Shown: piece after piece, positions 43,801-64,000 of the stretch
Layout: every line of letters starts with the position of its first letter
Numbering within the stretch: position 1 is the first letter of the stretch
Assembly (NCBI GenBank): GCA_013239625.1
Contig: MU053629.1
Coordinates: 3,685,567 to 3,749,566 of the forward strand
DNA from: Lama guanicoe
Taxonomy: Eukaryota
DNA length: 64,000 nt
Direction: 5' to 3'
Made by a program: the position numbers and the translations under genes
The notes under the pieces: model-generated
What the model was told of the DNA's origin: nothing
The model's database searches: none
What the model saw: only the letters and a program-made list of their open reading frames with translations

Positions 43801-46800
43801 CTGAATGGCCTGAGCCCCTGGAAACAAAATCTGCTGTTGAACTTGTGCAGGAATTTCTGAATGGTGTTTGTTTTCCTAACTCACACTTTTTTTTTTTGGT
43901 TTATTTTTCTTAATTGATGATTTATACTTGCTGTTTAAATATAAGTTGTCCCTTCAGGCTTGGTATGCTTTTCGGTTGGGATAGAGATAAAGCTATGAGG
44001 TCTGTCATGGTGAGAGGGACAGCTTTTGTTCTAAATTGCTAACGATAAAGTAATTTTAAGAATTAATAATATGTTTTTAGTGGAGAGGGTATAGCTCAAG
44101 TGGTAGAGCGCATGCTTAGCATGCATGGGGTCCTGGGTTCAATCCCCAGTACTTCCTCTAAAAAATAGATAAGTAAACTTAATTCCCCCCAAAAATAAAT
44201 AAATTAATTAAGGCTTTAAAAGTTTTAAATTTATATATCATGTACTGCAGTCATATTTGAGATTGTAGGAGAAGAGGGATGGAATGGTACCTCTGAGCTC
44301 CCACCATGTGCCTGACGTTTTGTGCCAGGGGCTTTCATTGCACCTCAGTGCATCCTCACTGCCCTACCTAGTGGGGATCTGTTATAGCCTTGTTGGAGAG
44401 TTAAGCAATTTGCTAACATCCCCAGTTATATTTCTACTATGCTTATTTGCCATTTGAAAATAGGATTAGGCTAGAAATAAGTTGGAAAGCAGAAAAATAA
44501 ATTCAGAGTTAATAAGCTTTTGCCACTTTCTAGACTTAAATAAGCTGGATGAACTTGGTGATTCTACAAAAAAAGACACAGAGGTAAGTGATTGTTATTA
44601 GAAAAATACACTGAAATAGCTTTTAAAGTCTAGTTGCACTCTTGTCTTTTATGTCCTACTGTCTCAAATGGATCTGGTCCAGGCAAGACGATGTTTTGAG
44701 GGTAGCTTTTGCTTGGTCTTTAAAGTCAGCACTGGTGATTGTTCTGCCTGAGAACTGATGAATATTTTTAAAGAGAACTAATATGCATTGATTATTAATT
44801 GCTTAACTGCAGTGAAGTAGAAATGGATATGTTAACATACTATGAGGTGATATTACTGTAGTATGTGAAAAATGCTCTGAGATGTTTTGTTAATATGCCA
44901 CAGGTGGTATTAAATTGAGCTAAATATGTTACCATTTGACAACTAGGAGAATGGAGACAAAGGTGTTTTAATTAAATATTTTCACATGGAAGGAAAGTTG
45001 AATGCTTGATTGAGGCATCACCCTTTAAGAACAATTTTAGGGGTCCAGTTTCTCACTGTCTGTGGATTTGTAGCTCCTTATTAGTGAATGAGGTTACAGA
45101 AGATGCATTCATGTCTCTGTATGTGCTCGTGATTCCGCATTTTCTCAGAGCGGCATTTGAAAACTTATTGGCATTCAACTGTTTCACTTTTGAAAAAATA
45201 AACGAGTATTTCTGACGCTGACTTCTCTTCCAGACAGTGAAGCACGACTCCGCAGCAGTTGATCGGTCCATGGAGTGTCTTCTCACAGTGCGGGGTGACC
45301 TGGATTTTGCTGAGCAGCTGTGGTGTAAAATGAGCAGTAGTAAGTGTCCATCAGGACTGGGAAATAAAATGTTTCCTGTTATCCTTAGGTTTACTTTTAA
45401 GTCTTTTGGAAATAATACAGTGTGCACTGCTAGTCTTGTGTGGACATCTGGTTCCCATTTTATGAAATTCATGTCTAATAATACATTGGCACATTCTACT
45501 CAAGAATTGTCCTAAGACAAGGCAACTCGTAGAATCTCTTCTCCTGCCTGAAGTATAAGACTTAGATGGGGTCTTTTTGTTTTGTTTTGTTTTAATTTTT
45601 AATTTTTTTAAAATTAAAAAAAATTTTTTTTTTTTTTGGAAGCAGGAGGTAATTAGGTTTATTTATTTATTTATTTTTAATGGAGGTGCTGGGATTTGAA
45701 CCCAGAACCTTGTGACTGCTAGGAGCTATACCCTCCCACCAAGACTTAGGTGGTTTTTATGCTATATTTATATGAAACAAAATATACCTTAGTGAAATTA
45801 CAATTATTAGAAAGAGGAAAAGATATTTCATAATATTTTTCTAGGTATGTTATTTTATGGAAATGAGTTTAATTTCTCTCTTAAAAAATACATAAATTTT
45901 TTTTTTTTTTTTGGTTTTGGTTGCTTTCCTTGTCTCACATCCATAAAATTCAGATACTTATCTTCCACTTCATTTGTGTATCCTTAAGATTAATGACATA
46001 TTTGATCTGCAGAAGTAGCCATGAAAATAATGTTAGACTGACCTGTTTTCCAAGGTGTGGTTTCATATCAAGACCTGGTGAAGTGTTTCACATTGATCAT
46101 CCAGAGCCTCCAGCGCGGTGACATACAGCCATGGGTAGGTTTAGTAGTGTGTGTTAAACATATTCTCAGCAGCACAGCACAGTGGGTAAGGACTCAGGTT
46201 CTGGAGCAGACGGCCTGAGTTCGAATTCCAGCTCTGCTCCTTTCTAGCCATATAAACTCTGGCAGATTCTTTGGCTTCTCTGAGCCCCAGTTTCCTCATC
46301 TGTCAAGTTGAAGTAGGGAATGATAACTACCTCATAGTGTTGTTTTCGGATTAAATAATTTAATTCATGTGAAACACTTAGCACCGAGCTAGCTCATAGT
46401 TAAGTGCTCAGTGTTTGTAAGCTACTAATATTGTCATTACTTGAGATGAATGATCATTCTCATAGCTATTGATGAGAGTACAAATTGGAACAAAAGCAGT
46501 TTTGTTCCAGTTTCTCTTTAAAAAGCAATTCTGATAATGTCTTGAGATCTTCAAAATGTATCATGCCCTATGAATCTTTAGGATCCATCCTAAAGCCATT
46601 ATAGAAATACGTATCAAGATTTTATGTATCGGAATCATCATTACAGCCTCATTTATGATAGCAAAAATTATAAATGACCTAAATTTTCACCATTAATGGA
46701 ATACCTAAGTAAATAATGACATAGCCACATAATGGCACACGTAATAGTTGCTATAAATGGTGCTGACAGATGATGTGGAGAAATGCGTATAATACTTAGT

Positions 46801-49800
46801 AAAAAGGAAAGGATTGTACACTATTGTATTAAAAATACAAATTTTGGAGAGAAAAGCCTGGAAACAAAAATGCTAAAATGTGATAGCAGTCACCTCTGGA
46901 GACAGGATGAAATGAGAATCAAATGAGGTTCTCCAACTGTATTATGTATTTCTGTACTTTACGGATGTTCCGTAATGATTTTGTGCTTTTATAATCAAGA
47001 AAAACCAGAGTTACAAGCTAGAAACAAAAAGATTCCTCATTTAATAGGAATTATTTTAAATAACGCAGCTGCCAATTCATGACTACAAAACTTAGAAACT
47101 TTCATAGGTGTGAATAGAGAGATGCTTTGGAGCAGAGGCATGCAAACCCTCCCCCTATTTGGCTGTTAGTCATTCTAGGCGTTTTAGTCTTGGCCATTGA
47201 ATTTTTCTCTTGAGAGTTTCAGTGTTTCTGAGATACTTACACGTGTGCCCCTACCAAATACAAAAGATTGTGGTGGAAATTGGAGATAACAAAAAAGACA
47301 GTAGCAAGAAAGTGTCAGATATTTTGGTTTGGTTTAAAATTGTTTAACATTTGTAACCCATGTTAGATCTGTAAGTTCACAGCCCTCGTTAGTTCTCAAA
47401 GGACCAAGTTAATATGTGGGATATTATAGCCCATAAGGAGGTCCTTCTGACACGGACGTGGACCACTGCGGGAGCAGCAGCAGATCTGTAGTGTAGTTGA
47501 AGATGCTCAGTTTTGGAAAAGATGCCCAACAGCACTTAATGGGTCAGGAAGAGAGAATTCTTAGTTGTAAAGCTTCAAAGGACCAACTCTGCCTTCTCTT
47601 TGGGAGAATTGTGTCTTGGATGCGTTTAAACCCTTCTTAATTGCTTTGGACTTAAGCAAATGAGGTAGGAATGGCACTTTAGAAACTGATGGGTTTGTGA
47701 CTTGGAGGTTTTATTCAAACAATTTGTAGCGTCAGGAGATGAAAAATGTAAGCTTATAATTTTTAGCTTTTAGCTAATACAGTTTGCTTCTCTTTTGCTC
47801 ACTGGACTTCTTTTTTGTTTTTATTTGTGGTTTTATAAACTTTTCTCGATGCCTAGCTTCATAGTGGGAGTAACAGCTTGCTAAGTAAGCTCATTCATCA
47901 GTCTTACCATGGGCCCATGGACGTGGTTCCTCTCAGTGGGACTGTTCCAGTTCAGATGGTTTTGGAAATTGGTTTGGATAAACTGAAGAAAGACTACATC
48001 AGTTTTTTCATAGGTAAGTCCCTTTCCCAGCTCAAAAAATTGAAAGCTGCCTCACAGCTGTCAGCCATAGGAATTCTCAGATTTTATCTACATTTTCCGT
48101 TGTTGTTTGGAGTGCTGGCTTTGCCCCTGGTTCACCGTGAGACTTCCATTTTCTGAGCTTTGGTTTCCCCCCTGAATAAAGATATTAAAGATAACTATAG
48201 TTTTTGTTTGTCTTTAGATCAAACATTTTGAGATTCTATGAGGTTAGTGTAGTAAATAAAAAACTTTTATGAGATGCAATTTTAATACATATCACTTGGC
48301 TGATTTGATTAGGGGCAAACTGTGATCACTTTTAGAATAAATATTAGCATATGTATATGGTGTAATGTAGCAGAAAATTTGGCCTTTTGTGCGAAATTGT
48401 TTAGCTTGATGATTCCTTTCATGTATGAACTGTGAAATTGTTTTCTTAGGTGGCTTAACAGGTAATAGATAATGCCTAAAGCTTATGTGCATATATGTGG
48501 TTTTTTCTTGATAGGTCAGGAACTTGCATCTTTGAATCATTTGGTGAGTTTATTTTTTCATTCTGAAGTTGATTTTTTATTCAGTCATTCTGCATAACAT
48601 TATTAAGTGCCTACTCTGTGCCAGTCTCTGTCCTAGGTCCTAGGAAACAGATAAATAAGACAGTCAATTAATTATACTGTCTGGTAAGGCAGACCAAAAA
48701 AGTAGCCTATACAGTGTCATTTCTTGTTCTCTGTAAATTGATGATACTGACATAAAGTTGTATCCTGCTCAAGCCATTGCACCCCCCCCCAACTCTCATC
48801 TGTCTGAAATGGCAGGGAATGCCTTTCTTTGACAGGCCCTCTAAAGGAATATTTGCTTTATATTCACTTGACCCATTTCTGTTACACATTAAGGATTACT
48901 TTCCAAAGAATTCGCTATGCTCTTTAACATACTAATTCAAAAGATACTTGAGGGTTTCAGGGCCATGATCATGCGCTTTTGTGTTTTCTTCGTGTATTGA
49001 TTTAGAAAGTTAAGGAGATTGAAGGGCATCTGTACTGACCCTTGACATTTGTTGGAGGATTTTTTTAGAAAATGAATCTTCAAATGACATCTGGCTTCTT
49101 ATAAAAATACAAGATAGGAAACCTCTAGCTTTATCTGTTATGCAAAGGAAGATACAACTGGATTCTTTTGACACTGGTTTTTGCTATTCAGCTTTTAAAC
49201 ATTTTATTAAGAGTATATATTTTTAGTACAAATTTTTGGTATACATTTTTTAAATAACATTTTTGCAAATATACTCTTGATCTCATCACTCAAATGTGAG
49301 TACTTTTTTATGAATTCCCCTCAAGTCATTTCATATGCCTATTTTTAAAAATTCGGTTTGACTTCAGACTTGACACGGTAGTCCTTAAACTTTGACGGTT
49401 TCCTAGAAGGCTTATTAAAATGCTAATTCCTGGGCCCCAGTGACTCAGTAGGTCTGGGGCTCCAGAATACGTCTTTTATTGGAGGGTGAGGGGGTGGACG
49501 AACCCTTTGTGGCTTTATCAGATTCTCAGTCAGTTGCTTTTGGCTAGAACTAGGATATGCAGGGAAGAATGCATCTTTTTAAACAAACTATCTCCATCTC
49601 CGGGTGATTCGGATGCAGGGGATTTGCAGGTATGTTAGTTTTGTATTGCTGCCATAACAAATTATGACACACTTAGTGTCTTAAAACAACACAAATGTAT
49701 TACTTTATAGTTCTGTAGTTCAGAAGGCCAGGCTGGGTCTCACTAGGCTCAGATCAGGGCGTTGGCAGGCTGTGTCCTTGTCTGGAGCTCGTAGGGGAGA

Positions 49801-52800
49801 GTCCATTTCCTACTCCTTTGAGTTACTGGCAGAATTCAGTTCCCCGTGCTTGTAGGACTGAGGTCCCTTTTTCGTGCCGGCTGTAATCTGAGGGGTGTTC
49901 TCAGCTTACAAAGACCAGCCCATACCTTGGCTCCTGGCTCCCTTCCTCCATCTCTAAAGCCAGCTATATAGAGGGTCGAGTCCTTCTCATGCTGTATCCC
50001 TGCCTCCCTTGTCCGATTTTAAGAGCGCGTGTGATTGGGCTCACCTGCATAATCCAGGACACTTTCCCTATTTCAAGGTCAAATGACCTTATACGTCTGC
50101 AACCTTAATTCCTTTTTGCCATGAATGTAACATACCCGCAGGTTCCGGGGTTAGGACATGGATGTCTTCTGGGGGTGGTCGTCTGTGTAGCATGGCAGAC
50201 CACGCCTTGAGAAACCCTCATGAGGCTACACTGTCTCCAGGTAATCAGGCTGTGTCACCCAGGTCAACCCAGGTGGACCAGCCTGGGTTGTAGCAAGAGC
50301 AGAGAGAATCAGAGGGGAAAGGCACGCTGGGTCTGTTCCTTTGTGAGAAAGACCTGGGGCTGTCCACTTCTAGGGGACCGCTGGGAATACGGGTGGCAGG
50401 TGCGAGGAACGCTGTAGTCTGTAGCCAGTGGCGAGCGGGGCTGTGTTGGGCTGCTGCCTTCCTGGGCCCTTGCCTCTTCCCCTACTTGTGTTATTTTCAC
50501 ACTTTAGAATAACCTGTGTAAGACAAGAAATATGTCCCTGTATTTTGGATTTCATTATAGATGAATTTGCATTCAATTTGTCACATTTTGCCAAGCTTCT
50601 TTTAAACTATAATTTAGGATTATCCATGGATCTCTCCTACCTCCTTGCCACTACCCCCAATTAATTAAGAGATGGCTATGGCTTTTCCCTCACTGTGTTA
50701 GTTTTCTGTCGCTGCCTAACAAAATCTAAATGCTTAAATGAACACAGCTTATCTCACAGTTTTTGGGAGTTGGGCGCCTTTTAGCTGAGTCCTCTGCTCA
50801 GGGTGTCACAAGGCTGAGATCAAGGTGTCCTCTGGAGGCTTGACTAGGGAAAGACCCACTTTCAAGTTGCCTCACTTGTTGCTGGTGGAATTAATTTGCC
50901 TGTGGCCCTTTGATGAAGGTCCCCGTTTTCTTGCTAGCTGTTGGCCCAGGACCAGTCTCAGGTCCTAGAGGTTGCTTGTGGGTTCTGGCCCTGTGGCCCT
51001 CTCCACAGCATGGCAGTTTGTTTCTTTAAAGCCAGCAGGAGAGCATCTCTCATGCTTCACCTCCTTAAAGAGCTCATTCACTAGGTCATACTAACGACCA
51101 ATTCATTAATTCAAAGTCAATTAGTAGTAGGGGAGGGTATAGCTCAGTGATGGAGCGCATGCTTAGCATGCACACGGTCCTGGGTTCAATCAAAAAAAAA
51201 AAGGAAAGGAAAAAACCCAAAGTCCATCAGTAACCTTATCATGGAGGTAACATTCCATCACATTTACAGGTCTGGCCTCGCTCAAGGGGAAGGGAGTATA
51301 CAAGATACGTATTCCAGTGAGGGGCGAGTTGTGGAAGAATTCCACTGACCGTATCTATCATGGAATGTTTCCTTAGGACGGGTTCTCAGAAACAGATCTC
51401 GGCGTTTTATGATGCTTGGCGTAAGGCTGCCAAGTTTCTTTTTCAAAGAGTCATACCAGTAATACATGCTAGTGGAAGCTTGCTGATATACTTGCTTAAT
51501 TTATTGGTGCTTCAAGTTTACTATGTATTTTTAGGGGTGGGTACTCCCATCAACCTAGCAAGTGTGTTGAAGTTAAGAATGATCTTGTGGGTCTTGCCCC
51601 TCCTTCCATCTGGAGAGTTTGGTGGGTGGATCCTAGTTACCTCCTTGGGCCTCCTTGGTGAAGCAGTTCTGTGATTTCCCTTGGCCAGAGGATATGTGCT
51701 TGGCTCAGAACATTCTCAATGAGGACTTAGAGTTTACTTTGAGGAGTGGCATTGAAAGGAGGAAAGCTGTCTGGCTGCCTGCTGTCTTCCCCTGACCCCA
51801 CCCCAGGCCTGTTAATCAGTCGTGCACACGTAGGTCAAGTGGGCAAGTTACAGTCTTTCCAAAGATCCCACTTGTTCATTAATTCCCCGTTTTCCTTTCC
51901 CTTTTTTCATTTCAGGAATATTTCATTTCTCCATCAGTAGATACACAAGAACAAGTTTATCGTGTCCAAAAACTCCACCACATTCTTGCAATAGTAGTCA
52001 GTTGCAGGCTTTTCATCAAACCTCAACACGAGCTCCTCTTTTCCTTAACGCAGTAAGTGTCTCTCTCTTGTTGACTTACATTAAAATGTATTCTCTTCTG
52101 AAATAGTTGCAGCCAGATAAGCGCCTTTTTTTAAATTATCAGTGAGGATGGAATCTGTGCTCCCCGTCCTCACAGTAGCAGGATGGTTCTAAGTCCCTGC
52201 GGTGGGAGGACAGGCTTAGGATTCGGGAGGAATCAGGTTGGACACTTGGAGCTGGTCCATCCTGACTTTCTGAGGAAGTTGCTTTTCCCTGCAGCTTGTT
52301 TCATCTATAAAAAGGTTGGAATATATATAAAGTGCCTGACACTTAATAGATGCTTGATAAATAGTTCCTTCTTTTTTTTTTTTTCAAGTATTTTTTAGAT
52401 GTGGGAGGAAGGTAATTAGGTTTATTTATTTATTTGTTTTTAACGGAGGTACTGGGGATTGAACCCAGGACCATGTGCATGCTGAGCACCGACTCTACCA
52501 CTGCGCTACACCCTCCTCACCTTCTCTTTTCTTAACATCCTTGTAGAATTTGGGTCAAACTAATTGCCAGCCATCTGTATGGTAACTGAATGGAAGCAAA
52601 TTTTATTACCAGACCTCTGTCAATAGTAATTGCTGAAATTTTAGCAATCCTGTCGATTGGTTGGACTAAAAACAGGTGGGAATAATCCTTGCACATGGAT
52701 TGCTGGTGTCTTATGTGTATTTTTTTTAGACTTCAAACTGGAAGTGAACCGTTGAGTGGAAGGAATAGGTTTCTTTTTCCCTGTAGAAGGAGATACACCA

Positions 52801-55800
52801 TTGCCTTTTCCAAAATGAGAGTTGCCTCATTTGTGAAGGGAAAGTTTGAAGTTGTTACTGGGTTTTTTTCCCACATTAAAGATCAGTAGTATATGTGAGT
52901 TAACTCTTTAATTCCCTGTATTTGGAAAACAGTGGAGGCTGGATCTTTTGCCTCTCTGTTTTCTTTCTGGTACCTCTTTCTCCCACTTAAATCCTGACTT
53001 GAACTCAACTTAAATATATTTTCCATTTATGAGAACTATGTCCACTATTAATTTTTTAAAAGGAAATGAAATTTCCTTTGTAAGAAAAAAAAAAAAACCT
53101 AAGTATTGTTGATAACAGGGAGTTTCATGTTTCCCTTATGAGCTTTAGGCAACCAGAAAGCCTTTTTCTCTAAGTGGCTTCTTTTTCCAGTGATTTTTTT
53201 TTTTTTTTTTTTTTTTTTAGATCCTGAATAAAATATTATAAACAAAATCCTCTTGATGAGCAACACGTTTTTCAGCTGCCAGTCAGACCAACTGCTGTAA
53301 AAAACTTATATCAAAGGTATGCAATTTAATAACTAAATATGCTTCAAGTCCAGCCATGATTTCTAGGCATTTTCGGTGTCAGCTCCTCATGACCTCATGA
53401 CCTGGACCTACTTGACCTCTGAAACCGTAATCCTCTGATTCCCTTTCTCTGAACATAGTCTGATAGAGTCCTGCCTCTTCCTCCTCCCAGAACTTTTGTC
53501 TGTTCTCTTTAGACTAGTGGTTCTCTACTCTTTGATTTTGCTCTTAATTTGTAATTCCTTTACGGAAGAGGGCAGAAAGTTTAGCCAGAAGGGAAGTGAC
53601 AGATTAGGAGGAAAGTGATTGGGGTAATGACAACAAAGTCAAGGGTATGGCTGTGGGAGGGAGAGAGAGGAGGATGTGGGGAGGGGTGGAACTGAGGCTT
53701 AGATGGTAGATGAGCCATCCACCCAGACGGTGCAGTCGCCTCAAATCACGGTCTCTCCTGACTCTTCTCCTTAGCATATGACAGACTTGAAATTTTTCTC
53801 GTACTCGATTTGGACCCTCCCTCTGTTTAGATCCCGCTTAGCCAAACCCCATCACCCCCCTGAAATTATTTGACAAAAGTTGCCGGTCATTGCCAAATCC
53901 AGAGGACACTTTCCAGAAGAGTGTGTTTTGGCCCCTTGTGTAATTAGCTGGCCCACCAATTCTCTCCTGTTCACTAAGTACTTGTAAGGCTCTTTGGCAT
54001 TCACACTACTGCTCTCTTGAACCTAGCCCCTTCCTTTGTTTTCATGAATAATATTCTATCTTAATTTTAACTCTACCTCTCTGGCCCACCTCCAAGACTG
54101 AGAATAGTTCCCATTTCAAGTTCTCCTTCCTCTGCCTCCTTCATCTGAGTTCTCACCAGACCTCCACCCTCTCTGTCTTCTTTTCTTCCTTTCTGTCTTC
54201 CCTAGGTGATTGCGTTCACACCCAAGGCTTCAGTTCCTCTGGGCCAATGATAATTCATAACCCGTACCTCCTGCTTCCTCTGCGCTTCACACCCGTGTTT
54301 CTAAACGTCTGTTAGACGTGAATCCTCAACTTCAACATCCTGTAGGTCGTTCAGACTCTAAATCCGATCTCCTCACTTTCTTCCTAACATTTTTCCTACT
54401 CCCGTATTTCCTCTCCCAAGCGGTCATCATTAATCTCCATCTGATGCCCAAAACACTTACCTTCTCCTTGCTCTTGTCACTTCCTCTCTCTTTAAATGGT
54501 TACCAGGGGTCTTAGAAGCTCTTGAATCCGTTCCTTTCTCTACATCCTCACGTCATCATTGCCTCATTTCGTATGTAGGCTCTGTATGCTAAATCCTTTC
54601 TCCTAGCTGCTCTGTCCACCTCCATCATCCTCCTTCTCTGTGTCACTGCTGAAGTGATCTACCTAAAATTCAGATCCATCACCTGACTTCCTTCTGTTTA
54701 AGTGACTCCCTTACCTTCAGGACACTGTTCCAGCACTCAGTGTGGTCTGTGAGGCCTCTGCGCCATTCTGGCCCATGTGCCACCACGTCTTCCCAATCTC
54801 CTCTTGAGTCACTGACTGTGTTTCCTCAGGCGCGCCCCACACTGAGCCCTTAGTGCCCACACCCATGTCCTTCCTTCATCCTGGACCTTGTCTATTTAAC
54901 TAATTCTGCTTACAATTTCCTTTAAAGCGTACCTCAAAGGCCACAATCTCTGAGGACTCTTTTTCCAACTCTACATTCCCAATCTAAGTTAATTTACCGC
55001 TCTTTTATTGTCCCCTCCCACATCCGGTATTTCTCAATTATAGCATTTTTCAAAATTGACTAATTATTTACTTACTAACTTATTTATTTTTATTGAAGTT
55101 TAATTGATTTACAATGTTGTATTAGTTTCTGGTGCACAGCAAAATGATTCAGTTATACATATTTTTTTCAGATTCTTTTTTATTATAGGTTATTACAAGA
55201 TATTGAATATAGTTCCCTGTGCTACACAGTAAATCCTTGTTGCTTATCTATTTTGTATATAGTAATGTGTATCTGCTAATCCCATACTCCTGATTTATCT
55301 GTTCCTTCCCCCTTTTCCCCTTTGGTAACCACAAGTTTGTTTTCTGTGTCTGTGAGTCTGTTTTTGTTTTGTAAATAAATTCATTTGTATCAGTTTTTTA
55401 GATTCCACACATAAGTGATATCATGTAATATTTGTCTTTCTCATCTGACTTACTTCACTCAGTATGATCATCTCTAGGTTCATCCACGATGCTGCAAATG
55501 GCATTATTTCATTCTTTTTTATGGCTGAGTAATATTCCATTGTACATATACCACGTCTTCCTTATCCAGTCATCTGTTGATGGACATTTAGGGTGCTTCC
55601 GTGTCTTGGCTATTGTGAATAGTGCTGCTATGAACATTAGGGTGCATGTATCTTTTCAAATTAATGTTTTCATCTTTTCTGGACATATGCCCAGGAGTGG
55701 GATTGCTGGATCACATGGTAACTCTAGTTTTAGTTTGTTTTTTTAAGGCGCCTCCGTATTGTTTTCCGTAGCGGCTGCACTGAATTGTTGTCACTTACAA

Positions 55801-58800
55801 CCTTGTTTCTCTTCCTCTCTTTGCTGTGCTTCTTCAGGTGGGAACTGTGACCTCTCCACCTCTTCCTCACTGCTTGTCACATCAGGACTTCACTGACTAT
55901 AGAAGGAACTGGGTTTTTTCTTTGATTTTTTTTTTCCTTAGTGAGAAGCCACAGAAATGGAGAGTGGAGATAAATAGCGGTCAGAAGAAGGTGAAAACCG
56001 TTTGGCAACTGAGTGACAGCCCACCTGTAGACCATCTCAGTTTTCACAAACCTGGTGAGGATGGTTTGTAGTCTCTCCACATTAATTATTCCAATAGAAA
56101 ATAAACTAAGTTTACTAGCAGATATTATTATTAGAGCTCTTGGGCCTAGTTTTAAATAATTTTCCTCAACTCTAGGTAAAAACCTATTTATTCTGGGGGA
56201 AAAAAATCATGAGAGAGTGCTTTTTCTCACTGTCCTGGCTAAAGGAACTTATTAATAGAGGTCAAGCCATAGGGACATAGGTGTAAGAACAAGGTTATAA
56301 AATGGAAATGCCAGCTCATACTTTTTACTTTGGTGTGCTGTTTAAAACAGTGATGGTATTTCTGCCCTGATGCCCTCTGTGTGGTGGAGAAAGGGTTAGT
56401 TTGTAGTATTCTGTCAGACATGGTCCATGTCAGTCAAAGAATGTCTTTTAGCCCCTGGTATAATTAGCTGACCCACCAAGTCTTCCTCCTTCCGTAAGTA
56501 CCTGTGAAAACTGTTACCTTTGTGCACATGGACCACATGGTGCTGACATCTCTTATTCTCTATTTGTATAAGTCTTAAATGGCTAGTTCAAATATTGCAA
56601 GGATTGTCCAAAATAAAATCTGATATTATTTAAACAGAATTCAAGAAGATCTGAAAGGCTGGGAATACAAATAGTCCTATTATAGTGATTAATATCTTGC
56701 AAAATTATTTCCAAAAAATGTTTATACTTGCCCCCCTTCCCAAATATATTTTGATTCAGGCATAATGGAAGTTTCTCTCAACTAGAATGGAAACTCCTGT
56801 CTTCATACGGCTGAACTGTTAAAGTCCTAGAGAAACCAAATTTTCCTGAGAACCATCAGTTAAAATCATGCTACCTTTTCTAAGTGTGATATAAAACCTG
56901 GAGGCTATAAAAAACTGAAAATCAACTATATAAAAATAGAAATATTTTTGCCTGGCAAAAAATACCAGAGGCAAAGCAACGGACAAATGATAAACTGGGA
57001 AAAGAAATTTGCAGCTCATGTTCGGAAAAGGGGCTACCTTCCCTAGTATACAAGGAACTTTCGAATCACTGAGACAAATATAAGTAACTCAATAGAAAAA
57101 TGGGCAAGTAACATGAACAGTTTACCAAAAAGGAAATTCAGATGTCATCTTAAAAATAAAAGGTGCTCAACCCCACCTATAATAAGAGGAATGCAAATTT
57201 ATATTATGTAAATATCATCTTTCATCTGTCAAATTAGCAAAGGCCAAAAAGTTTGGTGTCACAGTGCTGGCCAGGATTTGGGAGAAACCACACACTGCTG
57301 GGTGGAGTGTGAAGGGGTGTGGCTTCTGTAGAGGGTGCTATTCACCAGATTTTTGAAGAATATATTCTTTGGCCCAGCAGTTCCATTATTAAGAATTTAT
57401 TCCACGTATATAACTAGACCTGTGCAAAAAGGCCTACAGACCAGATTATTAATGGTGGTATTGTTTGCAGGAGCAAAACTAGGGGCCTGGACCATAGAAA
57501 AAGGTCTGAAAGGAGACAATTAAAGCTTAACCTTGAGGTGTGGAGTGGTGAGGGCAGAGGGTGGTGCTCAGTTTTAATCGAACATTAGAATCATCTGGGG
57601 AGCTTTTAAAGTTCTAATACCCAGACCAAGTAAATCAGAATCATTGGAGGCAGAGCCAGGACATCATAATTTTTAAAGTTCTCCAGGTGACTCCACTGTG
57701 CAACTAAGATTAAAAACCCACCAATTCATACATTTTACTTTATCTCCATTTGTTGTTTCAGGTTTGTTTTTTTTTTAAAGAAATGTATTTTATGATTTAA
57801 AAGAAGTTTTGAAGACATGAATAAATGTGATACATTTTTGGAAAATGCCATTTAAAAATAAACTTTATTACATAAAGATTAAACCTCTGAGATGAGGAGA
57901 TTCACACAAGATTAAATGCCTTTTTCCAATGATGCTGAAATAGTGCAGTATGCTGAACATGTCTTCTAGAGTCTTTCTGATGAGGTTGCTTCAAAAAAAG
58001 AATGAAAGCTATTTTGAATGTTAAGAGTTAAAACACTGTGCTCATCTATTGGTCCAGAGACTCCTTTTAGGAAAATAAGGAATTTTTATGAAATCATATA
58101 TTTGCCTGCTTGGAAACAAACTCAAACTCCATTTTGACTTGAACTTTATAACCTCTTCTACCCATCACATATTCTTGATGTGTTTGTCTAGAAATTATCC
58201 AGTGACCTTTGGCCCAAAGCAAGGCCCACTGTTGAAGGAGGATCTCATTCGTAAAAGTCATGGGTTATTCAAACAAAGCCTCAGTTATAAATATTAAGGC
58301 CCAATAATTTTTTATTTTGGCCAGATCATAGGCATTTACAAAACTAGACTGTGTCATTGGACTGAGCACTTAGGTCAAATACTAGCTTTGTAAGATGTCT
58401 AATGGAATGATGCTCTTGAGTAAAATAGTTGACATCAAAAGCAGGAAGGCTGAAGAGAGAAGAGGGTACTTTTAGCTGCCCTGGGAAGAAAGAATAATGA
58501 TTTGGAGTTAATGAGGGAGAAAAACCGTGTCCAGTAGAGTGCTGCTCACCCCAGTGGGCGCTCGGCAAATGTCGTTGGTAATGGTGGGTATATGGAAACC
58601 AAAATGTTGACCCCCAAGGAAGTGGACGCTATCTCATCTAAATGTTAATTGTACCATTTATTTTTGAAAAACAGTCATCTTCAGGAGAAAAAAAAAAGGC
58701 TATGTATCAAGACTATAAATCCTAAGTAGAAAATGTTTTCTGAACTCTATATTACGATGGGGAAAAAGACAGTTGTTTAACTGTAGGATGAAGCACAAAA

Positions 58801-59162
58801 AATAAAGCAGTAGATGCCCAAATTAACAAGAGAGAGTTTTTTAAAAAAATCTGCTTGCTTTTTTAGTTTGTTTAGTCATGTTTTCGACACATCAGGAGGG
58901 TTTACTGTTTAAAGGAATCGCCTTTGCTGATTTTTGTCTGATAAATTCTCTGAAAGTAGAACACACACGTCATTCAGGCTGCTGCTTAATCACTGTTAAA
59001 TTCAGCAGGATGTATAGTAGAAAAGCCAGCAGGGTGGTAAATGATTCTGATCTCTCTGTCTCTCTGGTTATAGATTTTTCTGAGTTAACATTGAACAGTA
59101 GCCTGGAAGAAAGAATATTCTTTACTAACATGGTCACCTGCAGCCAGGTGCATTTCAAGTGA
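25811..59162 (+). CDS. ZWILCH: Protein zwilch homolog (RZZ kinetochore complex), 589 codons; exons 25811-25863, 28900-28951, 31891-31986, 34894-35012, 37797-37996, 38504-38574, 39076-39231, 40537-40608, 43770-43863, 44534-44583, 45234-45339, 46055-46134, 47857-48013, 48515-48543, 51916-52052, 53221-53316, 55942-56054, 59074-59162; in-frame TGA at 53225-53227 (codon 493)
   Basis: The translation runs [52 protein letters not shown]...[19 protein letters not shown]...[14 protein letters not shown]...[26 protein letters not shown]...[17 protein letters not shown]. The exons total 1770 nt, all junctions are AG/GT, and the frame is continuous apart from one internal stop. Confidence 0.95.
26450..26632. 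mobile_element. MER5-like hAT DNA transposon
   Basis: CAGTAGTTCTCAAATTTGAGCGTGCGTCAGAATCACCTGG...GGTCTGGGTGGGGCCAGAGAATTTGC. Similar copies lie at about 49400-49630 and 57560-57720. Confidence 0.7.
27540..28010. mobile_element. ERV LTR-like element
   Basis: GCCTCTCAGATAGCTGTGAGGAACTGTTCCAAAGAGGTAA...ATGGGAAGATGTAAGAGTCTGGGCTCATTGAA resembles laurasiatherian LTRs. Family not assigned. Confidence 0.55.
29020..29630 (-). mobile_element. Old L1M 3' fragment interrupted by a SINE
   Basis: GGCAACCACTAATCTGTTTTCTGTC...TTTTATTGCTGAATAGTATTCCATTGTATGGATGTACC. Boundaries are approximate. Confidence 0.75.
29446..29575 (-). mobile_element. tRNA-derived SINE (vic-1-like) inserted into an older L1
   Basis: Head GGGGAGGGTATGGCTCAGTGGCAGAG...GTCCTGGGTTCAAGCCCCAG. 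TSD TTGTTTCCAATTTTT at 29431-29445 and 29580-29594. Confidence 0.88.
29888..30118. mobile_element. Tigger2-like (Tc1/mariner) non-autonomous element
   Basis: The ends resemble inverted repeats: TGCTGATCCTTGAATAA ... TTGTTCAAGGGCCAACTG followed by TA. Confidence 0.7.
30225..30670 (-). mobile_element. MLT1-like MaLR LTR
   Basis: TAGTCTCCTAGGGCTGCTATCACAAAACACCAC...GTCTGAGATCAAGGTG...TTTGGGGGGACATAATGCAACCCACAA. Confidence 0.75.
30750..30820 (+). mobile_element. Partial vic-1-like SINE
   Basis: TGGTAGAGGGCATGTTTAGCATGCACGAGGTCCTGGGTTTAATCCC followed by an A-rich tail. Confidence 0.75.
32027..32199 (-). mobile_element. Short 5'-truncated L1 3' end with a 16-bp TSD
   Basis: L1 3' UTR-type TTGAATATAGTGCCCTGTGCTATA, also seen at about 55205. 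TSD GTGGTTAATTCTTAAT at 32011-32026 and 32200-32215. Confidence 0.82.
32410..32905 (-). mobile_element. Old L1M fragment nested in a MER3-like hAT element (~32311-33150)
   Basis: L1M 3' motifs flanked by CAGTGCCATCCAATAGA... and ...GGCCACATTTCAGGTGCTCAGAAGCCACATGTG. Boundaries are approximate. Confidence 0.6.
33824..33970 (-). mobile_element. tRNA-derived SINE (vic-1-like)
   Basis: The head carries A and B boxes. TSD AGGCCCTGGCAT at 33812-33823 and 33971-33982. Confidence 0.9.
35452..35660. mobile_element. MER20-like hAT element
   Basis: GGGCATTTGGAAATATACAAGGGTACTTTTTGATTGTCACAGTGACT...GAGAAGCCCT. A related copy lies at about 42628-42850. Confidence 0.6.
36878..37720. mobile_element. MER21-like LTR
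   Basis: TGTGATATTGTGGTTTATAATAAGAAA...GGGGCTGGTTGCCAGGGGAACCAACCATGTGACTAGAGGGTT...TCTGAGTTCTGTGAGCCACTCTAGCAAATTAATTGAACC. Confidence 0.7.
38835..39000 (-). mobile_element. tRNA-derived SINE (vic-1-like)
   Basis: Same consensus as the other copies, flanked by TCAAAGTAG at 38821 and 39001. Confidence 0.88.
41150..41795 (-). mobile_element. Old L1M 3' fragment
   Basis: TTATCCATTCACCAGTTGATGGACATTT...TTGCTGGGTCATATGGTAACTC...GGGCTCCAGTTTCTCCATATCCTTGCC. Confidence 0.75.
44081..44210 (+). mobile_element. tRNA-derived SINE (vic-1-like)
   Basis: GGAGAGGGTATAGCTCAAGTGGTAGAGCGCATGCTTAGCATGCATGGGGTCCTGGGTTCAATCCCCAG plus an A-rich tail. Confidence 0.9.
45575..45740 (-). mobile_element. tRNA-derived SINE (vic-1-like, internally deleted)
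   Basis: GGTAATTAGGTTTATTTATTT...GGATTTGAACCCAGAACC...GAGCTATACCCTCCC, with AAGACTTAG on both flanks. Confidence 0.8.
49630..50190 (-). mobile_element. MLT1-like MaLR LTR
   Basis: TATTGCTGCCATAACAAATTATGACACACTTAGTGTCTTAAAACAACAC...GGGGTTAGGACATGGATGTCTT. Confidence 0.75.
50695..51345 (-). mobile_element. MLT1-like MaLR LTR containing a SINE
   Basis: TGTGTTAGTTTTCTGTCGCTGCCTAACAAA...CACAAGGCTGAGATCAAGGTGTC. Boundaries are approximate. Confidence 0.65.
51130..51215 (+). mobile_element. tRNA-derived SINE (vic-1-like, 3'-truncated) inside an MLT1-like LTR
   Basis: GGGGAGGGTATAGCTCAGTGATGGAGCGCATGCTTAGCATGCACACGGTCCTGGGTTCAATC plus an A tail. Confidence 0.85.
52372..52519 (-). mobile_element. 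tRNA-derived SINE (vic-1-like)
   Basis: Same consensus as the other copies, in reverse orientation with a T-rich tail. Confidence 0.87.
55080..55782 (-). mobile_element. L1 3' end (ORF2 C-terminus and 3' UTR)
   Basis: Typical L1 3' sequence: TTTTATGGCTGAGTAATATTCCATTGT...ATCCAGTCATCTGTTGATGGACATTTAGG...CCCAGGAGTGGGATTGCTGGATCA. Confidence 0.88.
56870..57480 (+). mobile_element. Degenerate L1 ORF2 fragment
   Basis: AAACTGGGAAAAGAAATTTGCA...CAATAGAAAAATGGGCAA...CCCAGCAGTTCCATTATTAAGAATTTATTCC. Confidence 0.65.
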
Positions 59163-59696
59163 TATGTGCTGCTGGGGTCCACTCTAAGGTAGTATGTTCA
59201 TTTTTTGTTCTCTCCCAATACTGTGTAATATATTAAGTACCTTATGTTTTCGTTCTTTCTACAACATAAATGCTGATTTAATACATTTGAAATATGGATT
59301 ATTAGTAATCACATAAAAGGCTTACCAGGTGTTACTGAGCAGTGCAAGTCTTTAATTTCCTTTCTACCTTCTGTAGTCACCTGACAGTTTAATCCTAAAA
59401 CCAGAGAAATGAAAAAAAACTTTTTTAAGTGGTAATGTCTTTGCATTTGAAATCTGTATCTATAGTAGAAAGAGAGTTTGGTTTCAGTACCATTGTTGGA
59501 AGAAAAAAACCCTAAGTAGGCATGCTGATTTGACATTGAAAGCGAAGTTTTGTTAAAAACAAGTGTAACCCAGCCTAGCTGTAGGACTGAGCCCCAGTTG
59601 TAAACACCCTTTTTAAACTGTTTAATCTGAGGTAGTATTAACCACAAGAATTAATGGAATAGCATTTTCTACTATCTTACTGTTTTTGTGTTTCAG

Positions 59697-59817
59697 AAAC
59701 AGCATTAAATAGAGTCAGATCATGAATAAAATGCCTAACATCATTCTTTCTTAAGCTGTGTTTTGTACCCAAATAAGTGGTTATTAATTTTAGCATTTTG
59801 GCATAGTTAAGAATAAA
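59697..59817 (+). other. Probable non-coding terminal exon of ZWILCH with AATAAA at 59725-59730 and 59812-59817
   Basis: A donor-like AAG|GTAGTA at 59188/59189 follows the stop, and an acceptor TGTTTTTGTGTTTCAG ends at 59696. The true 3' end is uncertain. Confidence 0.55.
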
Positions 59818-60432
59818 ATGGACCTTTTAAAAAAATCTAGTTACAGAGAAGATTTATAAATTATATGTATAATATTTCTTTGAGGTATTTCATTGAGTAA
59901 AGGAAATTAATTTAGCATTAGAAAATTTCTCTTAGAAAAGCGAATGTGCTCATTTGCTTGGTGCCCACCTAATGGTTTTTCCTGGTTGCCTAATAGGAAA
60001 GGATTGTTATCTATGATTGACTGTCTCTCGTTTGTAGGGCAGTGCTGATGTGGCAATCATTTCTACTTTAAAATAGTATTTGGGGAGATTTTAAAATGAA
60101 ACATCCGAATCACACAGCAGTTTATACGCTATGATCCCCTTTTGCAAAAGGAAAATAGGTGCATAACATACAGCAAAATATTAACATTGACTTTGAGAGG
60201 GCTGAGATTACAGGTGGTTTTTATTTCATTTGTGCTTATTTTTATTTTCTCATTCTTAAATCCCAGCACAAGCCCTCCTCCCCCGCCAAAAAAAAAAAAA
60301 AGAGGAAAAAAAAAAAGGTAATTATCACAGAACCTGAAAACAGAGATGCATGTAAAGCTTCAGAGCAGAGAAAGGAGCAAGAGCCTGAAGGTGCCCTGTG
60401 AAGGATGCAGCCGCCGGACGGGAGAGCCTGTC

Positions 60433-60548
60433 TCAGCTCAGGCTCCGCAGCAGGAGCATCAGGAGAACCGCAGCGATCAGAATGCAGAGGGTGCAGACCG
60501 TGGGGACCACGATCTCCGTCACGATCTGCATGTAACTCAGCAGGGGCT
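60433..60548 (-). CDS. LCTL: Lactase-like protein (gamma-Klotho), last coding exon encoding the transmembrane helix; upstream exons lie beyond the window
   Basis: The acceptor TCTCTCCCCTCCGCAG is followed by (E)PLLSYMQIVTEIVVPTVCTLCILIAAVLLMLLLRSLS*. This matches the recalled LCTL C-terminus and the expected synteny next to ZWILCH. Confidence 0.9.
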
Positions 60549-60987
60549 CTGCGGAGGGGAGAGAACGGCATGGCGGATGAGAACGCGGCCAGCATGGCTT
60601 CCTCCTGAAAGCTTCCCCTGTCTGGGAAAGCTCGGAAAGGGGCATCGTCAATTTTCTAATTATTCTTATTTGCCATCAGAGAACCTGGTGAATTAAGTGG
60701 ATAAAGGATACTTAAATTGGATTCCTCCATAGGTACAGAAATTAAAGTCTGCATGTGTGTTAATGCTTGTGCTTACTCAGAATATTAGCATCCATGTTCC
60801 ACAGTTCCTGTAACTCTCACTGCGGGGACTGATGAAAGAAAATTCCTTGGGAAACACCTGCAGCCTTTCAAAGATGTTAGTGAGCATCTTAAGAGGTACA
60901 GGGATTTCTATGTTGACATTTTTTATGGTAAGTCTTAACATAGCTAAATAATCTTTAAGAGTTATAAGCATATTTTGTGGACATTTA

Positions 60988-61004
60988 TGTAATACCTGCT
61001 TTTA
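60988..61004. repeat. Target-site duplication, copy at the 3' end of the insert (TGTAATACCTGCTTTTA)
   Basis: Identical to 63246-63262. Confidence 0.93.
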
Positions 61005-63077
61005 TTTTATTTTTTAAATACTACGTAAATTTTAATCATGCACATACAATGCAAAAATATTTCCCTTTAATAAGCATTGTGAATATCTTACTTAACGGGA
61101 AGTAACGAAAATGTTTAACAGCGCAGCAGATAAATTTTTCGCATTTATTTTTTAGATCATATACTTCTTCAAAACCTTCACATATTCTTGACGTGCTTTC
61201 AAAACCAGATCTTGACTTAGACTTGACTCGTCCGTAGATCCAAGAGAAAGTCTGTAGGACTCAGAGTGGAGTTCAGTAGTAGCTTCTTTTACATCTCAGC
61301 TATATTATTTTCCAGCTTCTGCATCCTGAACAAGTAGTCGCCCGTGCTAGCTGAAGAAATCCTTTTGGGCTCTAAGCTATTATTAAAATTTTCAGCGGAA
61401 GGTGGCTGAAAATCCTTTTGGGCTCTAAGCTATTATTAAAATTTTCAGCGGAAGGTGGCCCGTCAACAGGCCTTGTAGGAACAGTGCTGATGGGAAAGAA
61501 CTCTTGTGCTGTTTCTCCATCTGAAGTTCAGTGTTCATCTCTGCCAGCCTCTTGTTAGCCGAGTTTTGCTGACTTGCCAATTGCGTTCTGTTTTCTAGCT
61601 CTTCCAGGTGCAGTTGTCTGTATTTTTCTAATTCTTTTTTGTTAGAATTGAACTGCAGAGGTTTACTTCTGGGGAGTTCAGATTCCAGATATTTAATTTT
61701 GTGTTCCATTTGACTTCCTGTTGAAGCATTTTTATTCTCTCTCAAGTTTTCTTGAGATGGTGCTTGTACCTGTAAAAACTGGCTGATTCCTTTCCATTTT
61801 TCTACTACGTCCTGTCTTGCTCGCTCTTCAGTCTCCCGTTTGTTCTGCTGCACTTGACTGCGTTCCACGGTATTCATTTCTAGGTGACATTTGAGGTTCA
61901 CTACTTCTTCCAACTTCTTTTTCTCCTCCTCTAGTTTTTCACATTTGTTTTGCATCTCTTGCATAGACAATAACTCCTTTAGAAGAAGTTGAGTTTCTGC
62001 ATTCAGATGGAAAAATACTGAAGATGTAGATTCCAGTTTTGCTATAAGATCAGCATTTTCATTTGCAGTTTGATGTAATTTCCTCTCTAAATCCTGTGTC
62101 TCATTTTCTAAAGGAGTCTGATGATGCGCTGTCACCTCCAGGGAGGCCTTCGACATGGGCTGTTTCTTTCGGGTGTCAGTCAGTCCTTGCTGAAGCTGTC
62201 TCACACAGGCCTGGCTCGGTTTATGCCTTAAGCTCTTCAGTTCGAATTCTAGTGCTCGGACTTGCTGTTTCAGGTGAACTTGTTCATTGTATTGTTTGTC
62301 TTTTCTTTTTAAGTCACCCTTTTTTTTCATAGACTATATCAGCAATTTTTTTTCTTTCCTGTTTCTTGTTTTAATGTGAATCTCACACTGCAGAGCTCTC
62401 GTTCCCACTCCACATTTTGACATTCTGTGAATTCATTTCCCTTGTTTCCAACAGCTCTTTTTGTAGCCTGTTAACTTTATTTTCCATTTTTAAAATTTTT
62501 TCTTCTAAGTAGTTCACAGTTGATTTCTTTAGGTTCTGTTAATCTTCTGAATAAATGAACTGCATCCTTAATTTTCAATAAGTTAACAGTCTTTACACTC
62601 CAGGCCAAGTTGTTTGATTAGCAACAGGATATTCTTATACTTCGAGTAAAGCGACTCGCAATCCTCGGAAGCTGTTTCCGGTGACAGAGTTAAGTCATCA
62701 GGGTCATCCACAGAACTAATCTGCTCTTTGACCTTGTCCTTTTTAGTAGATGTTTTCTTTTGAAGACCTGCCACGACCTTGATCTCCTTCACTTAAACTG
62801 CTGTTGTCATTCATGTGTAGGAGACCACCAGCCAGTGAGGCAGTCTTCGCAAATACACGTGAAGTCACAGATGCTTTTAATGTCCGTTTTCCACTTTCCT
62901 TCTTTACTTCCTTCATATGCAAGCTATCAGAATCTCCTTTCTGCAGAGCAGGAAACTGATGGTCATTAGTTTTTCCCCTCTTCCTCTGGTGAGTTAATCC
63001 TTTATCATAACTGCATCACACATGGTTTCTGATCCTTTCAGTTCACTACTTTTGTTCCTGTTCTCTTCTACTTCAAC
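61004..63077 (-). pseudogene. Intronless ANKRD26-like processed copy (C-terminal coiled-coil region, no ankyrin repeats) with frameshifts and stops; longest ORF 62330-61425 (301 aa)
   Basis: The peptides KVKEQISSVDDPDDLTLSPETASEDCESLYSKYKNILLLIKQLGLECKD, VRQLQQGLTDTRKKQPMSKASLEVT, ELEKYRQLHLEELE and the terminal LGSTDESSLSQDLVLKARQEYVKVLKKYMI* (stop 61154-61152) resemble ANKRD26. There are no introns, and an A-rich tail and TSD are present. Confidence 0.88.
61357..61459. repeat. Tandem duplication, 53-bp period (50 identical nt x2)
   Basis: AAATCCTTTTGGGCTCTAAGCTATTATTAAAATTTTCAGCGGAAGGTGGC occurs at 61357-61406 and 61410-61459. Confidence 0.95.
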
Positions 63078-63245
63078 CAGATTTTTGGTGTCTTTGTCTT
63101 CCAAAGAGGGTGATGTTCTTTCTGTCGGAGTTGGGCAGGTGCTCTGGTTGGCTGAGTGGGTCCGTAGATGTGAGTTTTGGTGTATTTGTGGGAGAGGGTG
63201 AGCTACGAGTGTCCTTCTACTTCGCCATCTTGCTTCCTTATCGTC
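63078..63245 (-). mobile_element. L1 5' UTR-like leader (168 nt) forming the 5' end of the ANKRD26-like retrocopy
   Basis: The minus strand reads GACGATAAGGAAGCAAGATGGCGAAGTAGAAGGACACTCGTAGCTCACCCTCTCCCACAAATACACC...AAAAATCTG. The YY1 motif CAAGATGGCG lies about 14 nt from the 5' end, as in full-length mammalian L1 starts (recalled, not searched). Confidence 0.75.
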
Positions 63246-63262
63246 TGTAATACCTGCTTTTA
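63246..63262. repeat. Target-site duplication, copy at the 5' end of the insert (TGTAATACCTGCTTTTA)
   Basis: Identical to 60988-61004. The minus strand reads CT/AAAAG, an L1 endonuclease-like site. Confidence 0.93.
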
Positions 63263-64000
63263 GGTTTTGTGCCAGACACCCCTCGGTTACCGACACAGGT
63301 AAGGCCCAGGTCTCACTCTCATGGAGCTCTTGGGCTCAACAGTAAATTCTACATCATGTCTTTCCATTAAACTTAGTTTAGTTTAATGGAACATATATCT
63401 TTAATATTGCTTGATTTTTTAGGTTGGCGAGGGAACAGTGGTGTAATGGCCTATAAAAACAGATGCACTGGTAGGACTGGCATTTTCCGCCTCTGATATC
63501 ACATTAAAGATGAATTTGTTAAAACAGGAAGTGTATTTCTCTGGCCTTATATAGCGAGAAAGACAAAATCCAAAGAAACAAATGATGTGCGTTGGCATTT
63601 CTTGATGCATGATTACAGCCTGGTCATTCTATACCTCTGATCTTTTTAGATCCTGTTGCATGAGAAATGCCTTCTGTGAGAGCAGGGACCTTGTTTTGTT
63701 TATTGCTGTGTCCCCAGGGCTTAAAACACCCCTGAGCTAAACAGTGACTGCTTAATAATTACTTGTGGGATGAATGAATGTAATATATGGCGGGGTTCTT
63801 TGATTTTCCTTTGTTCCATTTGGTATAATGGTTGAATTTCCCCCTCCTTCCAACAAAGCCCACTTTGTATAACACAGGAGTAGATTTATAAAGTTACAGT
63901 ATGATTCAGAAAGGATCAAACTAAAATAGATAAAATACTTCTTTTTCATAGTAAATTTTTAAAAAATATTTTAAATGCTGATAGCAATTTGACATTGCTT

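Follow-up and report, generated by a model that had tools for sequence, protein, structure and literature searches.

Does the insert in the last intron of LCTL of Lama guanicoe derive from a single RNA that began in an L1 retrotransposon and was spliced into a host gene, or is it an ordinary 5'-truncated pseudogene? The question was raised by a first-pass annotation of the stretch analysed here (64,000 nucleotides of assembly GCA_013239625.1, contig MU053629.1, forward-strand positions 3,685,567 to 3,749,566; hereafter the window), which had read positions 60988 to 63262 as a retrotransposed chimera of an L1 leader and ANKRD26-like exons. We conclude that the insert is very probably the processed retrocopy of a single chimeric RNA that had been spliced, a view that draws on the flanks of the insert, on the identity of its two parts and on the position of the junction between them.

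The insert and its two parts

The window holds exactly two copies of the 17-mer TGTAATACCTGCTTTTA, one at 60988-61004 and one at 63246-63262, identical at 17 of 17 positions. By chance 0.02 matches are expected, and none of 100 dinucleotide-preserving shuffles reached two copies. Between the two copies lie 2,241 bp (61005-63245), the insert, which is read on the minus strand. On the plus strand, the target at the edge of the duplication (...CTTTTA/GG; here and below a slash marks a boundary) is rich in T, in keeping with an L1 endonuclease site, and L1-mediated processed retrocopies carry flanking duplications of roughly 7-20 bp. The flanks of the insert thus bear a hallmark of an L1 retrocopy, the target-site duplication. 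Read 5' to 3', the parts of the insert are as follows.

63246..63262, minus strand: 5' target-site duplication, TAAAAGCAGGTATTACA on the minus strand, an exact match (17/17) to 60988-61004
63245-63243, minus strand: GAC, three extra bases between the duplication and the L1 start
63242-63078, minus strand: leader from the L1 5' untranslated region (5'UTR), 165 nt, starting GATAAGGAAGCAAGATGGCG and ending CACCAAAAATCTG, with CAAGATGGCG near its start
63077..63078, minus strand: leader/body splice junction, L1 donor CTG/gt joined to exon A acceptor ag/GTTGAAG
61012..63077, minus strand: intronless, decayed 3' half of an ANKRD26-like mRNA, ~2.07 kb, with exon-by-exon matches to paralogues
63077-62924 and 62923 to ~62766, minus strand: exon A and exon B, the body continuing onward to the last exon
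61428..62333, minus strand: longest open stretch, 302 aa, with coiled-coil domains of the family
61357..61459, minus strand: perfect 53-bp tandem duplication within the retrocopy (Tandem Repeats Finder: period 53, 1.9 copies, 100% matches)
61036-61031, minus strand: ATTAAA, polyadenylation signal of the parent mRNA, kept in 5 of 6 paralogue last exons
61011-61005, minus strand: short A-rich tail AATAAAA, not in paralogue genomic DNA
60988..61004, minus strand: 3' target-site duplication, an exact copy, from which contigs of four of four sequencing runs bridge into the insert

The leader was identified by searching a 168-nt query in the 2.05-Gb genome of L. guanicoe itself, which at first look held at least 1,886 candidates. 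Forty of these were scored, namely the copy in the window plus 39 more, the latter being 90-94% identical and all reaching the last base of the query. In all nine L1 copies that were aligned with their flanks, the 5' terminus was shared (...GAAGCAAGATGG) and the DNA upstream was unrelated, and three of three further copies start GATAGA, GACAAG or GAGAAA plus GAAGCAAG directly after unrelated flanks. Because this common start follows unrelated flanks, the copy in the window reaches the 5' terminus of the family, to within +/- 3 bases. Read contigs from other L1 copies stop matching at 63232-63236, the 5' end of the family, and the best-matching copy has an ORF1-like frame ~1 kb downstream, with a Transposase_22 match (E 1.9e-14) on a longer fetch. 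The leader in the window differs from other L1 copies by a private 4-nt insertion, and the additional GAC at 63245-63243 may be untemplated or may reflect scatter of the start site. By sequence comparison, then, the leader represents the genuine 5' end of an L1 family with many copies. Transcription would have begun from the L1 internal promoter at the first bases of the element, judging from the position of the copy's 5' end and from CAAGATGGCG, which we take to be a YY1-type motif.

The body belongs to the ANKRD26 family. Its 302-aa open stretch (61428-62333) matches Pfam DUF3496 (E 6.5e-20) and CCDC144C (E 1.1e-10); no Pfam match was obtained for three further, short open stretches. The top 47 protein matches of the 302-aa stretch were all camelid ANKRD26-like or CCDC144A-like proteins (53-68% identity), cetacean ANKRD26 coming next. 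The L. guanicoe genome contains many multi-exon paralogues, which the insert matches exon by exon. In the paralogues, AG and GT border the exons at query positions 1, 154/155, 1020/1021, ~1308, 1518 and ~1795, and these exons abut in the insert, showing that at least five introns are absent; for query 313-1020 and 1519-1793 the exon map comes from protein alignment only. Relative to the 1,777-aa dromedary ANKRD26 (P0014), the insert covers aa 905-1203 and 1419-1759 and so starts mid-gene. The N-terminal ankyrin repeats are not in the copy, as expected for a transcript starting mid-gene, and the copy is a fragment, not a gene. Stops occur in all three frames and the protein alignment shifts frame at least six times, which marks the insert as a pseudogene; the copy is now dead and codes for no functional protein of its own.

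The last exons of six paralogues can be aligned with the 3' end of the insert as far as ...GTAGTATTT(T/A)AAA, corresponding to window position 61012, which lies 15-20 nt past ATTAAA. Beyond 61012 the paralogues continue CCACATTTCTCTGC, whereas in the insert AATAAAA and the duplication follow. Since homology to the paralogues stops at 61012, the insert ends at the mRNA cleavage site. The alternative assignment of 60988-61004 to the parental 3' UTR was ruled out, because divergence from the paralogues sets in at the poly(A) site, ahead of the duplication. The exact duplication, the leader containing CAAGATGGCG and matching an L1 5' end, the intronless ANKRD26-like body, the short 3' end and the A-rich tail had all been proposed in the first-pass annotation, and all are borne out.

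The family to which the body belongs is itself greatly expanded. Multi-exon ANKRD26-like or CCDC144-like genes are numerous in this camelid genome, many of them on small contigs (C1724, C6074, C3427, C4610, C1236, C7686, C8194, C2805, C7051, C1686, C3491, C7937, C5894, C7151, C2417, C4415 and others), and the protein database holds dozens of camelid ANKRD26-like paralogues on different chromosomes. Exons of the paralogues in this genome are 98-100% identical only to alpaca proteins, besides one 98.1% tie with Camelus bactrianus. At one further locus (L018; G000:C371:113442-116928), a 75-78% match runs unbroken across the exon boundary at ~1310 (query 1023-1504), and this locus may be another, older retrocopy of the family.

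The leader/body junction and the use of its donor

At 63078/63077 the insert reads AAAAATCTG/GTTGAAGTAGAAGAG. In nine of nine aligned L1 copies the corresponding sequence is ...AAAAATCTG/GTAGGAG, which places a GT donor in good context exactly at the end of the leader. In nine of nine paralogues it is ...CTTTCACTAAAG/GTTGAAG or GTTAAAG, with an AG acceptor that follows a pyrimidine-rich tract and defines the start of exon A. The L1 donor and the exon A acceptor therefore both match the junction to the base. There are no filler bases, and the L1 intron and exon A share at this point only the GT that follows CTG in each. With up to three mismatches allowed, a 30-mer spanning the junction has no second match in the 2.05-Gb genome. 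Exon A is internal, as coding residues precede it in 27 of 27 camelid proteins (among 90 with a match there), and since this holds for all annotated relatives, the start of the retrocopy is not the normal start of the gene. The origin from one RNA running from an L1 start into ANKRD26-like exons, as first proposed, gains from these comparisons a junction that sits on an L1 GT donor and a gene AG acceptor, and a single spliced L1-promoter::gene RNA is strongly supported as the probable source.

The same donor was used in other L1 copies of this genome, which resemble the spliced integrated retrotransposed elements (SpIREs) described in human. Some L1 copies read ...GACAAAGACACCAAAAATCTG followed by TTTTATTCCTACATAGGCATT, with the ORF1 region ~80 nt on. 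On contig C754, the leader of an unspliced copy reads ...AAAAATCTG/GTAGGAGAAAGG, and 1,759 nt downstream this copy has ...TTTTTTAAG/TTTTATTCCTACATAGG; loci L061 and L062 lack exactly the GT...AG interval of the C754 copy. The acceptor boundary and the comparison loci are the following.

C754, 1,759 nt past the donor: acceptor boundary TTTTTTAAG/TTTTATTCC
G000:C6476:16515400-16516800: SpIRE-like comparison locus L061
C5396:4819700-4820720: SpIRE-like comparison locus L062
C754:5452600-5454900: SpIRE-like comparison loci L063 and L064

A 21-mer from the acceptor side (A at position -12 excluded) had 115 genomic matches, of which 100 were listed. Among the 100 matches listed, 74 were preceded by a pyrimidine tract and AG, 11 by a mutated AG, and 15 were joined to the leader. 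Three further leader-joined copies were recovered with a 21-nt donor anchor, whose four matches comprised three spliced L1s and one mutated L1; a fourth row, obtained with a 13-nt anchor, carries a variant of the motif. The 13-nt donor anchor was too noisy for wider use (109 matches vs 29 in the control), and a GTB variant of the anchor, in which the restriction on the last letter also excludes the present locus, gave no match. At least 18 internally spliced L1 copies were thus made with the donor of the chimera in this genome, showing that the GT at the end of the leader works as a splice donor in the L1 RNA of this lineage. A shallow anchor search of the genome found no second host-gene chimera using this donor.

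LCTL, the dromedary model and read support

The insert lies in the last intron of LCTL, in LCTL orientation, and occupies 2.27 kb of its ~3.6 kb. The last coding exon of LCTL was located with 11 mammalian LCTL proteins as tblastn queries (lowest E 1.7e-12). GH1-domain exons lie further upstream on the minus strand, just past the end of the window, the nearest being 67/67 identical to dromedary LCTL. Together with a mini-exon and the transmembrane exon, they uphold the assignment of the site to the last LCTL intron that had been made from the sequence at first sight. Pfam searches of 142 open stretches between 44 and 64 kb found only ZWILCH, and LCTL was recognised through the GH1 search of the contig and through tblastn. 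The ZWILCH exons (45222-56068, plus strand; Pfam Zwilch profile positions 300-556) stand tail-to-tail with LCTL. The features of this region are listed here, with the part of the retrocopy that is used in a dromedary gene model.

60548-60433, minus strand: LCTL last coding exon, encoding the transmembrane tail, with stop TGA at 60435-60433 and acceptor ccgcAG/AGCCCCTG
64145-64207 (window-equivalent positions, just past the window end), minus strand: 21-residue LCTL mini-exon VESWYLKALEICSINNQMLAA, 100% identical to pig
62743..62940, minus strand: stretch of the retrocopy that serves as terminal coding exon of the dromedary model, with cryptic acceptor ctctgcAG/AAAGGAG and stop TAA at 62745-62743

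The dromedary protein P0121, annotated as 'Lactase-like protein', ends ...NPRE/KGDSDSLHMKE...SSKENI, and the 65 residues of this tail are 95% identical to the translation of 62940-62746. ANKRD26-like proteins reach at most 89% identity to the same 65-aa stretch, and the P0121 tail also lacks the (S)CPG codons of family members (GDSDSSCPGLHMK), a loss private to the retrocopy. In the P0121 model, the exon that ends the GH1 domain is spliced to the acceptor in the retrocopy, such that 65 retrocopy residues replace the transmembrane tail; it is the one LCTL model among the 45 proteins that share the stretch. The identity of the tail and the private codon loss together indicate that the retrocopy lies at LCTL in dromedary too, and, judging from this one protein model, it is probably present there. 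The expectation that other camelids would show an empty site is thus probably wrong, for dromedary at least. These observations suggest an insertion older than the divergence of the two camelid tribes, and the distance of ~6% of the insert from both its L1 relatives and the paralogue exons fits an old event.

The insert brought with it ~165 nt of the L1 internal promoter, a cryptic acceptor and a poly(A) signal of its own, all in LCTL orientation. On this basis the retrocopy might not be inert. It could have been kept, since before the split of Old World and New World camelids, as an alternative last exon that gives a secreted LCTL isoform devoid of the transmembrane segment, and it might in addition start a transcript of its own within LCTL. 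We regard this as quite improbable.

The assembly was compared with independent short-read assemblies by placing contigs from four runs on the window. Contigs bridge the 3' junction between duplication and insert in all four runs (60600-61386 or 60600-61356, with 0-1 differences) and the leader/body junction in three of the four (63038-63149, with 0 differences); all four also cover the flank at 60600-61000. In a broader search, 20 runs (of 24 listed, under 5 organism codes) contain a fraction of 0.72 or more of the words sampled from 59000-64000. As to the empty site, contigs of the four runs contained no joint that skips the insert, and the run search returned only holders of the filled site. 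Within the tandem duplication at 61357-61459, a contig of one run (X20) has 51 bases replaced by 7. The 53-bp duplication is a later event and may be lineage-specific or polymorphic.

Origin of the insert and its relation to known systems

The retroposition of cellular mRNAs by L1 is textbook knowledge, and the insert would be accounted for by a short series of such steps. Transcription would have started at, or within ~3 nt of, the 5' terminus of a sense L1, from its internal promoter. The donor ~165 nt into the L1 5'UTR (...AAAAATCTG/GTAGGA) would have been joined to the acceptor of an internal ANKRD26-like exon, both partners being seen in the genome, and the downstream exons would have been spliced normally, with polyadenylation at the gene's own ATTAAA, as the comparison with paralogues shows. 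Acting in trans, the L1 ORF2 protein (ORF2p) would have used this mRNA as template for target-primed reverse transcription at a T-rich site in the last LCTL intron, which before the insertion would have held AAAAGCAGGTATTACA once. The 17-bp duplication and the short A tail are the expected outcome; these hallmarks are observed, and the enzymology of this step is taken from established knowledge of L1. In the most economical model, the L1 most likely lay in cis, in the intron upstream of exon A. Frameshifts, stops, a 9-nt loss at an exon junction and the 53-bp duplication would have accumulated during later decay.

Several observations weigh against this reading or limit it. The stretch 63252-63650 has no contig cover in the four runs, apart from a depth of 2-3 in one bin in two runs; zero cover proves nothing, and the 5' duplication junction is known from the assembly, without read support. 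The evidence for insertion in a single event is the duplication itself, the empty site not having been seen in those runs, and the tail is only ~7 nt long. About 215 coiled-coil residues (aa 1204-1418 of P0014) are missing in frame near window position ~62210 (query ~865-870), a gap that could go back to a shorter parent, to an exon skipped when the source RNA was spliced, or to a deletion that came later. At the junction of exons A and B (62924/62923), nine of nine paralogues have 9 nt after the AG acceptor, CTGTCCTGG (codons CPG), that are missing from the insert. This loss is flanked by a GCT repeat and common to the dromedary P0121 tail; we read it as a later deletion, and it could reflect an unusual splice. 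The leader was found upstream of exon A in none of the nine paralogues with an exon A match, within 20 kb of each, and only three old L1-interior fragments were seen, in 2 of 18 stretches upstream of paralogues. Finally, the paralogue search of the genome scored 40 of 141 candidates, so that paralogues may have been missed, and the closest ones are at most 94% (exons A and B) and 87% (later exons) identical to the retrocopy.

A chimeric RNA need not have formed in cis. In trans-splicing, the donor of a free L1 RNA would be joined to exon A of a separate ANKRD26-like pre-mRNA and the product then retrotransposed, with no L1 in the parent gene, as might be read from the nine paralogues that carry no L1 5' end within 20 kb upstream of exon A. 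Law & Burns (bioRxiv 10.1101/2025.02.02.635956) raise trans-splicing for mRNA/L1 chimeras on the grounds that 15 of their gene loci lack an intronic L1. The true parent may not be among the paralogues searched, however, so the upstream negative is weak, and intronic L1s can be polymorphic and later lost. Trans-splicing is, moreover, rare in mammals. Cis splicing from an intronic or upstream L1 has been documented directly for L1/FOXR2, in the accessible part of PMC9038871, and we consider trans-splicing unlikely.

Two further explanations dispense with an L1-initiated chimeric RNA. In a template switch of the type described by Buzdin and colleagues, ORF2p would leave a 5'-truncated ANKRD26-like mRNA, jump to an L1 RNA at nt ~165 and continue to the 5' end of the latter. 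Two-part retrocopies that have a single duplication and a single tail do exist (U6/L1 and others, in the parts of that literature that were available), and one duplication alone cannot separate a switch from a spliced RNA. Yet nothing in a switch would direct the exit to the opening base of an exon and the landing to the base just ahead of a GT donor, and both coincide exactly here. In addition, the donor is used independently in spliced L1 copies, the junction has no filler bases, and a junction independent of splice sites, the mark of a switch, is not what is seen. On these grounds a template switch is scarcely credible. The L1 fragment could alternatively be an internal or 5'UTR exon of a paralogue, so that the insert would be an ordinary 5'-truncated pseudogene in which the L1 promoter had no part and the match to the L1 terminus was accidental. 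Exons derived from transposable elements are common, and the exon structure of the parent is not open to inspection. An exonised fragment would, however, start at an acceptor inside the L1, whereas the copy starts ~3 nt from the 5' terminus of the family; the leader is absent from the 20 kb upstream of exon A in all nine paralogues, and ordinary coding residues precede exon A in the 27 camelid proteins. This explanation is therefore very improbable. A spliced L1-promoter::gene RNA, formed most likely in cis, remains the preferred source of the insert.

Each step of this origin is already known, so the mechanism is unsurprising and no concept is changed; what appears new is the combination, preserved as a fixed retrocopy. 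In the literature searched, no report was found of a fixed retrocopy of a transcript running from an L1 leader into host exons; Belancio et al. 2006, which is possibly relevant and is credited with hybrid L1/gene transcripts in the accessible part of PMC2896524, lay outside that search.

The significance of the locus lies in what such a copy can carry and record. Ordinary retrocopies leave promoters behind. The L1 promoter is internal, placed 3' of the start site that it drives, and part of it therefore travels with an RNA initiated in L1, which would make such copies an exception among retrocopies. The insert would be a base-resolved fossil of germline transcripts that began at an L1 sense promoter and were spliced into host exons in camelid ancestors, and it indicates that L1/gene hybrids can become fixed as DNA. 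It also provides a recipe for surveys, namely an L1 leader ending at its donor and followed by non-L1 exons, all inside one duplication. The SpIRE-type copies described above, made with the same donor, document spliced L1 copies outside primates.

Comparison with known systems places the insert between several classes. L1 sense-promoter chimeric transcripts start in the L1 5'UTR, use a donor in its first 100-170 nt and a host exon acceptor, and end at the host poly(A) site, as proposed for the RNA behind this insert; the L1/FOXR2 transcript in glioma, for example, joins the first 97 bp of the L1 5'UTR, through a known donor, to the acceptor of the gene (PMC9038871, accessible part). Those are RNAs, seen in somatic tissue or at the level of expressed sequence tags, whereas here only a germline-fixed DNA copy is at hand, in a camelid and with the donor at ~165 rather than 97. 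With processed pseudogenes made by L1 in trans, the insert shares intron loss, an end at the poly(A) site, an A tail, a 17-bp duplication, a T-rich target and decay. Ordinary retrocopies differ at the 5' end, which is the gene's 5'UTR or a random truncation and not an L1 leader placed on an internal exon with ~165 nt of promoter region. SpIREs, described in human (Larson et al. 2018; PMC5860796, accessible part), likewise use an L1 5'UTR donor and are retrotransposed as spliced RNA, and the L. guanicoe genome has SpIRE-like copies with the same donor; their acceptor lies within L1, unlike the present acceptor and 3' end, which are those of a host gene. The mRNA/LINE-1 chimeras of Law & Burns 2025, as far as the accessible part of that preprint describes them, also combine an L1 part and spliced host exons within one duplication, with junctions at splice sites, but in the opposite arrangement: the host promoter and first exons run into the L1 body, and the pipeline inspects only sequence 5' of L1s, whereas here an L1 leader runs into the last exons of the host gene. 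Template-switch retrogenes (U6/L1; Buzdin and colleagues), as portrayed in the available parts of those reports, similarly unite two unrelated RNAs in a copy with a single duplication and tail; splice sites have no bearing on where their parts join, whereas both sides of the present junction lie on splice sites.

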